Shown piece by piece: positions 1,241-4,481 of a stretch of 8,824 nt of DNA. Source of the DNA: a virus (lineage: Duplodnaviria; Heunggongvirae; Uroviricota; Caudoviricetes); IMG/VR virus record IMGVR_UViG_2681813234_000007; one strand, written 5' to 3'. The notes beneath the pieces are model-generated. The model searched no databases. It was not told the DNA's origin and saw only the letters and a list, made by a program, of their open reading frames with translations. A program made the translations under genes and the position numbers. The stretch's first letter is position 1. Every line of letters starts with the position of its first letter.

Positions 1241-4200
1241 GAGTTTAGGGGGCTTCTTTGGAGCTATCATAACTGCGGTAATTGTCGCGGCAGCCGTTTA
1301 CTTTACTGGCGGTACAGCACTGGCAGCTATCGGTTGGGGTGCTGCTGCGGGAGCTGCTTCACTGGTGGCTACATCAATGTTGGGGCAAATCGGCGTAAGC
1401 GGTTATGGGGATGTATCGGACTCACTAAGCCGTAGTACTTCCCCAACTACGGGATTACCTGTTATCTATGGCGGTGAGTTGCCACATAAAAACGGGGTAT
1501 CAGGTGGTTCATACGTACTGACAGGTTCAATTGTGTCATGGTACAACGTACCGAATAGTGAGTCTCAATATCTCTTTTCAGAACAGGCTGTAGCATATGC
1601 GGGTACTGAAAAGAATATTTTACAGATTTATATCGATAACGAACCAATTTTAGCCGTACCTATTACACAAGATGGAATAGTACCGAAAGCCAGTATTGCG
1701 GCAAAGTATCAGGAATTTCTACAATTAGAAGTACGCTTTGGTGGTGATTATACCAGTACTAAAACGTTAGCTACAGGATATGCAGGGCCAAAATGGACTG
1801 ATAAATTTCTTGGTAAAGGTATTGTTAGTATCAGTACGGTTATCAAGAAAACACAGAAATCATTAGAAAATAATATTCTCGTTAATGATCAGTTTGCTTT
1901 GACCGTTGAAATGAAAGGGCAACGTATTTTTGATTTAGTGGATGGCAGTATTAAAGCAAGTAGTAATCCACCGTCAATCATCTATGATTACTTAACAAAT
2001 ACGACGTATGGGATGGGCATTGATCCCGCATTAATTAATCTTGATACCTTCAAAGAGACGGCAGCCTATTGTGATGCTTTCGAGTACTACGCGAATGGTG
2101 CGATCAGTTACCAATCAAGCTATAAAGAAAACATAGAAAATATCTGTCAATCATTTGGCGGTATTATGTATGTCCACGCCGGACAGATTTGTATTACGAC
2201 AGACCGTAAAACCGTTTCAGTCGCGTCATTTAATGAATCTAATATGGTTGGTGCGGTACAGATTTCAACCAGTGGCGATACTGACTACTTCAATGTGGTT
2301 GATTGCAAATTCACTAACCCTGAATCAATGTACACCACGGATGTAGTACGTATACCTTCAGATATCACCGTTGATGAAGCTGTTCGGCAAGACGGGCAGG
2401 TAATCGCACTTAGTCGTGATTACAGTTGGTCATATGATCCTGATGTCATCGCTAAGATGGCAAACATTGATGTACTCAAGGCAAAGTATGCTTTACGTAC
2501 TATCAGCTTTACCACGTCCGAAGGATGGGATCTCAAGGTTTGGGATGCTATCAATGTCAGTAATGCCGAATTGAATATCTCCGGTAAGTTTAAAGTACTG
2601 AACAAGGACATTGCCACCGATCAAGAGAACGTAGGCTATGTAACGCTAACCTGCGTGGAAGCCCCTGACCAGATGTATGACGGTGTAGATCCGGGCGTAT
2701 GGTCGCCGGGTGGTGTGATTAACTTCCCTGAACTTACTGTGAAGGCTCCAACGAATCTACAGGCAGTACGCAAGGGCAACACTACCAGCGGTTCTATCAT
2801 TGATTTGATCTGGACGGCTTCAGAAGATCCGTACCTACGGGGCTATTATGTTTACTACAAACTTCACAGTACCAGTACATGGACATATGCGGGGCAAACG
2901 GGCGTACAGAAAACCACTTATGAACTGTTTGGATTGTCTGACACTGCAAGCTATGACTTTGGGGTAGAGGCGTATAACAATCTTGGTTTGGTATCGCAGC
3001 GTGTAACCCTTAACGGAATAGTACCGACTTATAACTTTGCTTTACCTTCCGTAACTGGCGTAGTACTGGCAAATCGTACTGAATCAGCGTTAACCACCGA
3101 TGCACCTGATTTTAATATTGCATGGGATTCACAGAAGAACTTAATCGTTAATGGTCGCTCGTTTTCTGATTACTTCAAGTACTACATCATTAAAATCTAT
3201 AACGGTACAACCCTTGTAGATACTTTCTATACGCAAAGCAATAGTTTCAATTTCGCTCTTGCGATGAATCGTTTAAAAGTACGTAAACCAACTATTGGTA
3301 TTATCGCACAGGGATTTAATGATGGAACGTATTCACAGGAAGTGAAAATTACAGTAGAAAACAAACAATGTGGATTAGTACAAGGCGTATCATTCACTGG
3401 TGGTTTTGGTAATTTATTTGCTTCATGGACACAATCAACTGAACGTGATTATGCTGGTGCTGTTATCAGTATTGTTAACGGGAATACCAGCCGATTGTTT
3501 ACCAGTTATGCACCTGAATTCGACTCAGTACCAAACATCGTTGATGGTGAATATAAGGTTAAGATGGGATTCTTTGACGTATTCGGCACGGACAATATTC
3601 AGTACTGTCCAGAGCAGACGATTAGTATTAACAGCAAATACCAGTTCACTGAAGAGGATGCAGATGCGATAAACGGTATTCTTGATCTCGATGACCGACT
3701 AACAGAGACGTTAGAAAACGCCGTCAATGAATCGAACGAGTACACCAATACCCGTGTTGATACATTGAAAAACACCGTAGACGGGAACACTGCAAGTATC
3801 GGTACGCTTACACAGACAGTAGCGACTAACAACACAGCACAATCACAGGCCGTCACACAGCTACGTAGTGATGTGAATGGGCAGATAGCTACCGTTAACC
3901 AACAAATGAGCACAAAGGCAACTGCAAGCACAGTAGATAGCCAGTACTCTCTATCCGTAAATGCTAATGGTACAGTTGCAGGCATCCGGCTAGTTGCTTC
4001 TTCAGGAACGGCTACAAACTCAGCTTTATATGTTGCCGCTAACAAGTTTATCGTTTCCGGTACTGATGCGGCGACCGTGGGCGGTACTGCACCTTTCGCT
4101 ATTGTTAACGGTACTACTTATCTCAAAACTGCCATGATTCAGGCGGCGAGTATTGGTACTGGTTATATTGCTGATGCCGCGATTACAAACGCTAAGATAG

Positions 4201-4436
4201 CTAACTTAAGCGTGAATACGGCTAAAATCGCTGATGCAACTATTACTACGGCGAAGATAGCCAGTACTATTCAATCAACTAACTATGTTGCAAATACTAC
4301 AGGCTGGCAAATCAATAAAGCCGGAACTATTTTGATTAATGGTAGTGGCGGTACTGGTCGTATGGTTATCAGTAATAACATCATTCAAATCTATGATAAT
4401 AATAATGTGCTACGTGTACGCATGGGATTGTGGTAA
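1233..4436 (+). CDS. host-specificity / central tail fibre protein (lambda gpJ-like) with a gpI-like glycine-zipper N-terminus
   Basis: 1067-aa ORF with AAGGA at 1222-1226 before ATG 1233. Residues ~5-50 form a Gly/Ala-rich hydrophobic zipper followed by [13 protein letters not shown] and AAYCD motifs occur at residues ~258-281, as I recall in lambda J. Fibronectin-III-like beta-sandwich segments lie around residues 503-800 (nt ~2740-3630). A polar heptad-like segment spans nt ~3666-3930. C-terminal decapeptide repeats ending in AKIA occupy nt 4173-4262. Confidence 0.95.
4143..4262 (+). repeat. in-frame tandem decapeptide repeats in the J-like C-terminus ([10 protein letters not shown] / [10 protein letters not shown] / [10 protein letters not shown] / [10 protein letters not shown])
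   Basis: Read directly from the translation. At nucleotide level the units gctaagatagct / gctaaaatcgct / gcgaagatagcc recur with a 30-nt period. Typical of fibre-like beta-helical segments in J-family C-termini. Confidence 0.6.
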
Positions 4437-4445
4437 TAAATATCA

Positions 4446-4462
4446 AGGGGATAATTTCCCCT
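4446..4462. other. short stem-loop (AGGGGA-taatt-TCCCCT) in the J / downstream-gene intergenic region
   Basis: Perfect 6-bp inverted repeat with a 5-nt loop, 10 nt after the J stop. There is no following T-run, so it is not a canonical intrinsic terminator; possibly an mRNA processing or stability element. Confidence 0.3.
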
Positions 4463-4481
4463 ATGACGTAAAGGATTTAAT

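Follow-up and report, generated by a model that had tools for sequence, protein, structure and literature searches.

A probable split receptor-binding module at the tail-fibre tip of an Escherichia coli prophage

We analysed an 8,824-nucleotide (nt) stretch of Caudoviricetes DNA (IMG/VR record IMGVR_UViG_2681813234_000007; hereafter the window), in which the gene for a J-like central tail fibre protein of 1067 amino acids (aa) is directly followed by genes for a 98-aa and a 218-aa protein. These genes very probably encode a split receptor-binding module, in which the tip of J and two docked, exchangeable proteins replace the covalent receptor-binding domain of the lambda type. Our analysis showed which domains are present, which sequences are homologous, which genes co-occur, where the cassette lies and which folds are predicted. 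A preliminary description of the window had proposed that receptor recognition was split off into separate, exchangeable proteins, and this proposal is supported by the absence of the lambda-type domain PF12421 from J, by homologous gene pairs in YncD-dependent phages, by co-occurrence of the pair with one type of J ending (75/75 versus 0/8 loci), by a block swap with the sister prophage L022, and by a link to the pyocin protein PyoF11 through shared PHROG families. The idea itself is not new, as the split arrangement has been published for T1-like phages and F-type pyocins. New are the exact boundaries of the cassette, the assignment of the families DUF8377/phrog_4524 and phrog_7961 to the module, a structural link, suggested by model comparison, between the YncD-type large protein and an LptD-binding protein, and a regularity of three motif copies per cassette. 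The 8.8-kb window comprises the distal tail operon with lysis genes after it, and its features are collected in Table 1.

Table 1. Features of the window (coordinates in nt; residues are those of the named protein)
Feature	Position	Strand	Basis or remark
Tail protein, phrog_2048	216-839
DUF6950 protein	839-1240
J-like central tail fibre / tail-tip protein, 1067 aa	1233-4436	+	Open reading frame (ORF) call, Pfam, phrog_31 'central tail fiber J'
Distal fibre shaft, J residues ~818-975	3684-4157	+	Thr/Ala/Gln/Asn-rich, then start of PF09327-like beta region
Decapeptide repeats, J residues 976-1010	4158-4262	+	AKIA at 987, 997, 1007
Fibre-terminating tip module, last 57 J residues	4263-4433	+	IQSxNYVA..GWxxxKxG..ING..G.GR..I....
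Putative exchangeable specificity cassette: last ~30 J codons, 98-aa gene, 218-aa gene	4345-5472	+	Non-homologous in L022
Small GC hairpin in the 45-nt spacer between J and the 98-aa gene	4445-4463	+	AGGGGA-UAAUU-UCCCCU
Ribosome-binding site before the 98-aa gene	4467-4471		AAGGA
98-aa protein, PyoF11-like	4482-4778	+	phrog_7961, phrog_2427
Motif copy 1, 98-aa residues 3-18	4488-4535	+
218-aa protein, PyoF12-like	4780-5436	+	Pfam DUF8377 / phrog_4524; ATG is the start that homologues use
Motif copy 2, 218-aa residues 2-17	4783-4830	+
Motif copy 3, 218-aa residues 104-119, start of second domain	5089-5136	+	Among the most conserved family columns
88-aa protein	5477-5743		N-terminal hydrophobic segment (seen in the sequence) and coiled coil; weak PHROG matches only
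Lysozyme	5782-6231	-
GIY-YIG segE-like endonuclease	6272-6721

The end of the J-like protein

The J-like protein matched phrog_31 ('central tail fiber J') at 6.4e-59 and displayed all features of the J/central tail fibre family: the Phage-tail_3 hub (PF13550, residues 294-445), an FN3 domain (505-585; 23.7 bits, just below the Pfam cut-off of 25 bits), PF09327 (72 bits) and a position at the end of the tail operon. The PF09327 match ends at residue 1044, corresponding to profile position 132 of 139, and the protein itself ends only 23 residues further on. Lambda J has in common with it Phage-tail_3, the FN3/Ig (immunoglobulin) domains and the central straight fibre domain PF09327 (845-972 in lambda). 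In lambda J, however, a covalent 132-residue domain that binds LamB follows (PF12421, Ig_GpJ_C; 1001-1132), whereas the window J stops before it, and the Pfam comparison of the two proteins found no PF12421 in the window J. The preliminary description was therefore right that lambda J has a longer C-terminal receptor-binding domain. Outside the hub domain the window J and lambda J could barely be aligned.

Upstream of the end lie the decapeptide repeats named AKIA in the preliminary description. Their period is indeed strictly 10 residues (nt 4191-4262), with a register of roughly residues 976-1010, and it exists at the protein level only: Tandem Repeats Finder detected no repeat in the DNA of 3600-4500. 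The repeats form a 30-residue insertion relative to J of HK639, Bas10, T1 and N15, and similar ones are present in SU10 gp16 and in pb4 of Pectobacterium phage My1. Exactly 57 residues follow the last AKIA, matching the earlier estimate of ~57. That stretch had been characterised as a short Gly/Asn-rich tail. Shortness and composition (N 9, I 8, G 7 and T 6 of 57) agree with this wording, but the segment is a conserved fibre-terminating module and thus more than a tail.

By sequence comparison, the 57-residue tail is a conserved and widespread fibre-end module rather than a remnant. The window J from ~828 to 1067 aligned end to end with the C-termini of SU10 gp16 (7z4b_EA, ending ...LRIRIGSW), 9l9p_S and 9ze4_N; the last is labelled 'J central straight fiber domain', and the C-terminal sequence aligned in 9l9p_S is identical to that of T1 J. 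The F2-pyocin fibre matched the module in part, with a shorter end and its last residues aligned weakly. Over its last 55 residues the window J shares 65% identity with the HK639 J end, and the module also terminates J of Bas10 and N15. By tblastn it was found in 520 phage records, which include HK022, phi80, N15-like phages, Drexlerviridae, pb4 of a T5-like phage and Litunavirus podophages as well as Burkholderia, Ralstonia and Vibrio phages. We further scanned IMG/VR with J tails, which gave 80 loci, and added reference phages; the resulting 85 loci represent 56 distinct tails. In 85/85 loci the fibre ORF stops a few residues at most from the end of the module.

The preceding shaft also has relatives among PDB entries. 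A PDB sequence search aligned window J 818-988 with 999-1170 of the F2 pyocin fibre (25vf_A), with further matches to 7z4b_EA, 9ze4_N and 9l9p_S. The shaft is thus homologous to the part of the F-pyocin central fibre that includes the segment that turns from a coiled coil into a beta-prism, a fold switch described for the pyocin (PMC12874032), and judging by this homology the window shaft may have a fold-switch role as well. In F7 pyocin the homologous region forms a beta-prism bottom, a short beta-helix that is intertwined, and a terminal beta-prism that is narrower (PMC12874032). By analogy, the repeats of the window J would correspond to the beta-helix and its last 57 residues to the terminal prism, and the tip module would serve as the docking platform for the two downstream proteins.

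Two downstream genes and the exchanged block

We then compared the genes following J among the 85 loci, the pair count being limited to loci with enough downstream sequence. When J ended in R[VIL]R[ML]GL[WF], the 98-aa and 218-aa families were located directly after it in 75/75 loci, versus 0/8 loci in which J had another ending. These eight were T1, N15 and six IMG/VR loci with the endings ...GRL, ...GQL, ...GIWG, ...GIWS or ...GIWA. T1, N15 and 5 of the 6 IMG/VR loci carried a different pair, again a small gene (84-111 aa) followed by a large one (221-251 aa), and the N-termini were recognisably similar in most of these alternative pairs. The sixth locus (L089), for which ORFs were unlisted, has the J ending and small-ORF match of L088.

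The boundaries of the exchanged block were defined by blastn with sister prophages. With L022, high-scoring segment pairs covered 37-4344 and 5473-6243 of the window, and these flanks were 70-72% identical, with 72% for 37-4344; homology ends at J residue ~1038 and restarts four bases before the 88-aa gene. With L020, the break was at 4346. The break at 4344 and the restart at 5473 show that the exchanged block comprises the last ~30 residues of J together with both genes, and the tail of J is accordingly part of the exchangeable module and not a neutral stump. The GC content of the cassette is 42-47% (sliding windows over 4501-5500) versus ~36% just downstream (5251-5750). What emerges is a cleanly bounded, putative natural receptor cassette of 1.1 kb whose junction in J is defined within a few codons, and such junction data are what re-targeting of siphophage tails or tailocins by module swapping needs.

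Both genes are tightly packed behind J. The 98-aa gene starts 45 nt past the J stop codon, and the start codon of the 218-aa gene lies one base past the stop codon of the 98-aa gene. The hairpin in the 45-nt spacer was considered as a terminator and rejected as unconvincing (no T-run on the + strand; z-score -1.3). The 98-aa protein matched phrog_7961 at 1.2e-15 and phrog_2427 at 8.1e-9. Both proteins have full-length homologues of 35-43% identity in HK639 and in IsaakIselin/Bas10 (98 aa with bas10_0026, 35%; 218 aa with bas10_0025, 40%; both over the full length). In HK639 the pair (genes 24/25) stands directly after J in the same order and strand. With tblastn, both genes were detected in IME347, Bas10, NBD2, Henu7 and further phages, among them those of Klebsiella and Cronobacter; in Bas11 the small gene was detected. 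An exhaustive profile search with the 98-aa family collected 112 cluster representatives and did not reach the small proteins of T1 and N15. When the small proteins, profiles built from them and T1 ST31/ST32 were compared with PDB sequences, no solved relative turned up; weak antibody-VH matches in these searches were discounted as noise.

Conservation within both families is concentrated at particular stretches. In the 98-aa protein the N-terminal 27-30 residues (MAQGLQCWNxxGxLVVDLGDYNMRYMG) are highly conserved and the body is variable, with family conservation of 0.77-0.93 over the N-terminal 30 residues versus 0.4-0.7 over the body; in the 218-aa family the N-terminus, 101-130 and 161-170 are among the most conserved stretches. 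A conserved N-terminus with a variable body is the pattern typical of an adaptor plus a variable binder. Of the two products, the 218-aa protein is most likely the receptor-binding protein (RBP).

The N-terminal conservation includes a motif, xG[LFY]x[VC]xNxxGxLxxD, that is present as one copy in the small protein and as two in the large one. A hand-written regular expression proved too rigid and was replaced by a small hidden Markov model (HMM). This layout of one plus two copies was observed for HK639, Bas10, T1 and PyoF11/12 as well as for the window; in N15 it is partly present. Because the HMM seeds include several of the tested sequences, only Bas10, N15, L084 and L088 count as independent matches. 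The two genes had been called paralogous and immediately downstream of J. Their adjacency holds, but paralogy is weakly supported, by an N-terminal motif of ~17 residues. BLASTP of the 98-aa against the 218-aa protein aligned the N-terminal stretch only (E 0.009), hhalign between the families or between the halves of the 218-aa protein aligned only 12-26 residues of motif (probability 45-79%), and 26/45 members matched marginally when the second half of the 218-aa family (106-175) was compared with the small-protein family phrog_2427. Full-length paralogy could not be demonstrated by BLASTP or hhalign.

Predicted structures were obtained for both proteins. The 98-aa model is a single all-beta sandwich of 8 strands (predicted local distance difference test, pLDDT, 83.7), and its neighbours include carbohydrate-binding lectins and lipopolysaccharide (LPS)-binding domains of R-pyocins. 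The 218-aa model is mostly beta (pLDDT 85.8, predicted template-modelling score 0.79) with lower confidence for the first 20 residues; the N-termini of both monomer models had lower pLDDT. According to the models, the 98-aa protein would comprise one beta domain and the 218-aa protein two, with the motif at 2-17 and 104-119 of the latter. BFVD matches of the 218-aa model were uncharacterised 218-286-aa proteins of phages with the same fibre-end module (such as phCDa and My1). Its predicted fold also matched 9rpt_C, a protein that in purified form binds its receptor directly.

In some relatives, a small lipoprotein or signal-peptide gene stands right after or beside the pair. In L028 (1033-1326 after the J stop) its product starts MKMKGYLILLLVMIFTGC..., and Bas10_0024 (L001 7729-8061) begins MKKIMLAMALVAPLNAMA.... 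By analogy with Cor, Llp and Rtp45, both probably serve in superinfection exclusion. The window contains no counterpart of the exclusion gene bas10_0024; the next gene there encodes the 88-aa protein, with weak matches to other PHROGs.

Proposed mechanism, comparable systems and alternative explanations

On the basis of these data, we propose the following mechanism, in which physical docking, presence in the virion, the protein that touches the receptor, the identity of the receptor and the trigger are what we infer. The trimeric J-like fibre would have as its end a short, conserved tip of beta structure, formed by the last 57 residues, and the last ~30 of these would be allele-specific. The translationally coupled 98-aa and 218-aa genes would encode virion proteins that dock non-covalently on this tip, probably through the conserved N-terminal motif, and jointly provide the binding surface for a receptor in the outer membrane. 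Judging from the most similar cassettes that have been characterised, a TonB-dependent transporter, for instance YncD, may be this receptor. Once bound, the receptor would cause the shaft to rearrange, as described for F7 pyocin, and the tail tip to open, and a swap of the cassette would change receptor specificity and leave the rest of the tail untouched. To our knowledge, there is to date no structure of any complex between a fibre tip and such accessory proteins.

The F-type pyocins show a comparable organization. Their 'Specificity Module 1' consists of the last 60 residues of PyoF10 together with PyoF11 and PyoF12, which co-vary (bioRxiv 10.1101/2021.02.16.431561), and PyoF11 and PyoF12 have reported homologues in T1 and N15 and are essential for killing (Saha et al., bioRxiv 10.1101/2021.02.16.431561). 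Both proteins were detected in pyocin particles, and electron cryotomography (cryo-ET) revealed density at the fibre end (He et al., PMC12874032), where AlphaFold3 and cryo-ET together place them (PMC12874032; PMC13455828); Gu et al. predicted a single Ig-like domain for PyoF11 and two such domains for PyoF12 (PMC13455828). In a genuine F-pyocin locus of P. paraeruginosa (L091), PyoF10 has 1204 aa, PyoF11 97 aa and PyoF12 245 aa. As in the window, the central fibre has a PF09327-like end without a receptor-binding domain; a small gene (97 vs 98 aa) and then a large gene (245 vs 218 aa) lie directly 3' of the fibre gene; fibre end and both genes co-vary and recombine as a unit; the motif occurs three times; and the predicted folds share neighbours, the receptor-binding domains of Pam1 and R-pyocins. 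The two systems differ in that the pyocin is a Pseudomonas tailocin, whereas the window comes from an E. coli phage, and in that a side-fibre module (PyoF13-15) takes the place where the window has lysis genes. Furthermore, the pyocin fibre ends ...RDSAGQVRVEMGLLQS, whereas the ending of the window J is longer and different, and direct hhalign detected no similarity in the bodies of the proteins.

The sequence link to the pyocin proteins runs through PHROG families. PyoF11 of L091 matched phrog_7961 (4.5e-8) and phrog_2427 (1.7e-4), the same two families as the 98-aa protein; since direct hhalign of the two proteins was weak (probability 7%), this link is transitive. For the large proteins, phrog_4062 was matched by 15/45 members of the window's family (best 2.4e-4), by the window protein at 0.022 and by PyoF12 at 1e-10, and hhalign of the 218-aa protein with PyoF12 aligned the motif only (probability 10%).

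T1 and N15 have the same layout, with ST33, ST32 (101 aa), ST31 (229 aa) and cor in T1 and gp21, gp22 (100 aa), gp23 (225 aa) and cor in N15. Public annotations call the products of the gene pairs ST32/ST31 (L009 28607-29601) and gp22/gp23 (L010 8528-9507) 'outer membrane protein' and 'membrane associated protein', and the PHROG category of phrog_425 is 'moron'. These annotations look wrong, as synteny, the motif and the pyocin literature indicate fibre-tip proteins. Taken at face value, the legacy T1/N15 annotations and the 'moron' category of phrog_425 would make the two window genes morons or host-interaction genes, encoding membrane proteins or superinfection-exclusion factors unrelated to the virion. 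We consider this highly improbable. In the 98-aa and 218-aa proteins there is no signal peptide, no lipobox and no transmembrane segment (the highest Kyte-Doolittle values over 19 residues are 0.79 and 1.34, respectively), and both have soluble all-beta predicted folds. In addition, the genes show translational coupling, stand last in the tail operon, ahead of the lysis genes, and are strictly linked to the J ending, and the pyocin homologues are essential for killing (bioRxiv 10.1101/2021.02.16.431561). A paper on Cronobacter 'tail fiber residues' was set aside as it concerns another protein, the tail fibre Gp28, which recognises O-antigen.

The split module also has counterparts in T1-like phages. 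In Drexlerviridae, a 'bona fide RBP locus' is located downstream of gpJ, and its alleles match the terminal receptor (Maffei et al., PMC8594841), a correlation confirmed in a 2026 preprint (bioRxiv 10.64898/2026.04.02.716166); Bas10, Bas11 and IME347 are YncD-dependent (PMC8594841). The window shares with the YncD allele of this T1-like locus (Drexlerviridae, Dhillonvirus, Queuovirinae) and with HK639 24/25 full-length homologues and J endings of the same type, and the model of a dedicated RBP attached non-covalently to a J-like protein applies to both. Unlike the window pair, which is co-directional with J as in HK639, the Bas10 pair is convergent to J and accompanied by a third, signal-peptide gene (bas10_0024, phrog_25729) for a probable exclusion factor. 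Moreover, the window element differs from Drexlerviridae in being AT-rich and temperate and in its tail-tip gene set (DUF6950). YncD is a candidate receptor by distant homology only.

Other phages use related solutions. The protein in 9rpt_C is the RBP of Oekolampad (Bas18), solved with LptDE (PDB 9RPT; PMC12685063), whose receptor is LptD and which has 8% identity to the 218-aa protein. For the LptD-type locus of Oekolampad a single receptor-binding gene is described and a small partner is not; the relative Rtp has the exclusion lipoprotein Rtp45. The RBP families at the T1-like locus have been described as sequence-unrelated (bioRxiv 10.64898/2026.04.02.716166). T5 follows the same logic with a central fibre, pb4, and a separately encoded RBP, pb5, although the pb5 fold was not found in the window's receptor-binding candidate when membership of the T5 pb5 type was examined. 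The T5-like phage My1 has a pb4 with the same repeats and tip module (98% coverage) and a structural relative of the 218-aa protein. Three literatures thus describe the same device, as T1-like 'RBP loci', as PyoF11/PyoF12, and as the DUF8377/phrog_4524 and phrog_7961 families, which are still annotated as hypothetical, 'outer membrane' or 'moron'.

The main alternative is a chaperone role for the two proteins with the J tip as binder: the last ~100 residues of J would fold into a small trimeric needle or knob with LPS or a porin as its target, and the two proteins would assist assembly without being retained in the virion. Saha et al. at first allowed 'binding to it or acting as chaperones' for the pyocin proteins (bioRxiv 10.1101/2021.02.16.431561), in SU10 gp16 the homologous C-terminus has been modelled as a 'receptor-binding domain' like the T4 long-tail-fibre tip (PMC9509320), and a fibre end would be expected to co-vary with its chaperone too, as with tail-fibre assembly proteins. 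Nevertheless, this explanation appears unlikely to us, given that PyoF11 and PyoF12 are found in pyocin particles with cryo-ET density at the fibre end (PMC12874032) and that the locus allele predicts the receptor in T1-like phages (PMC8594841; bioRxiv 10.64898/2026.04.02.716166). The predicted 218-aa fold, which resembles the direct receptor binder 9rpt_C, would also speak for a binder, and in both proteins the body varies more than the N-terminus, as would be expected for a binder and not for a chaperone. The T1 cryo-EM (electron cryomicroscopy) study does not report gp31/gp32 (PMC11945409; 9L9P), but their absence from the map is uninformative, because the whole T1 fibre end (821-1172) is unresolved there.

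Recognition could also be dual, with for example the LPS core bound by the J tip or the lectin-like 98-aa domain and a protein receptor by the 218-aa protein. The lectin and R-pyocin neighbours of the 98-aa model fit such a division of labour, and several Drexlerviridae require an intact LPS core (PMC8594841); for Bas01 and CPL00221, the need for two receptors was attributed to a GpJ domain plus the locus-encoded RBP (bioRxiv 10.64898/2026.04.02.716166). We give this possibility slightly less credence than the chaperone role.

Several points weigh against the split receptor-binding module that we favour. For the proteins of this exact cassette, presence in the virion and receptor binding are predictions. 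Because the loci are related prophages, the counts of 75/75 and 0/8 do not represent independent events. Profile-profile comparison with PyoF11, PyoF12 and the T1/N15 pairs aligned the N-terminal motif only (probability 7-52%), so that the large protein is placed in the PyoF12 family on the basis of marginal PHROG cross-matches together with synteny and the architecture predicted for it. For the Oekolampad RBP, the match is one of a predicted fold to a solved structure, with 8% identity. As identity to the YncD-associated proteins is only 35-43%, their receptor cannot be assigned to the window pair. Finally, the homologous C-terminal module of SU10 gp16 was called a predicted 'receptor-binding domain' (PMC9509320), so the J tip could contact the cell directly.

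Within the split module, the three motif copies per cassette against three J chains suggest a further, speculative arrangement, in which the 98-aa and 218-aa proteins would form a pseudo-threefold cap with one motif-bearing beta domain per J chain, supplied by a 1+2 heterodimer, and in which the sequence-'unrelated' RBP families would constitute one ancient fold superfamily swappable by ~1.1 kb. We regard this extension as rather doubtful. If true, the 1+2 heterodimer would resolve the symmetry mismatch between a threefold fibre and a single, asymmetric receptor-binding face. The superfamily would then include the window's YncD type, PyoF11/12 and the FhuA type known from T1/N15; the LptD type would join it, should the single RBP of the latter be a fused or reduced version.

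Flanking genes and the host element

No near-identical relative of the whole window was found among deposited phages (megablast against the phage collection). The exact J protein is present on E. coli contigs, where the element lies between yeaG and mipA/yeaE/gapA and is therefore a prophage. E. coli 14EC007 carries an annotated copy that is 78% identical and disrupted by an insertion sequence; in this IS3-disrupted prophage (L008 23899-24207) the slot of the 98-aa gene carries no annotation. In the SRR10343268 contig (L006 4791-5440), the 218-aa gene is called as two ORFs of 58 and 158 aa, which points to a frameshift or an assembly error.

J residues 1-55 (window 1233-1400) form a long Gly/Ala-rich hydrophobic segment. 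No lambda gpI-like gene, nor any L/K/I-like gene, was identified among the upstream ORFs of the window. In lambda and the F-pyocins, predicted membrane-inserting helices reside in a separate gpI/THIP protein (PMC12874032); in the window protein such helices may be fused to J. The GC content within J is mosaic (0.47 at 1001-1500, 0.36 at 1501-2250, 0.46-0.47 at 2251-3000, 0.38 at 3001-3500 and 0.45-0.46 at 3501-4250), which suggests several recombination joints inside J besides the one at 4344.

Downstream of the cassette, the 88-aa gene is kept beside different receptor cassettes in L020 and L022 and was thus placed outside the exchanged block; its product may be a holin- or spanin-like lysis protein. 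A strong stem-loop terminator lies 3' of it (5746-5780), and the convergent lysozyme gene ends right beyond. The GIY-YIG segE-like homing endonuclease gene shows presence/absence polymorphism among sister prophages: blastn homology to L012 and L022 ends at 6243-6276 and restarts at 6714, bracketing this gene exactly, and L020 carries a different segE-like allele at the equivalent place.

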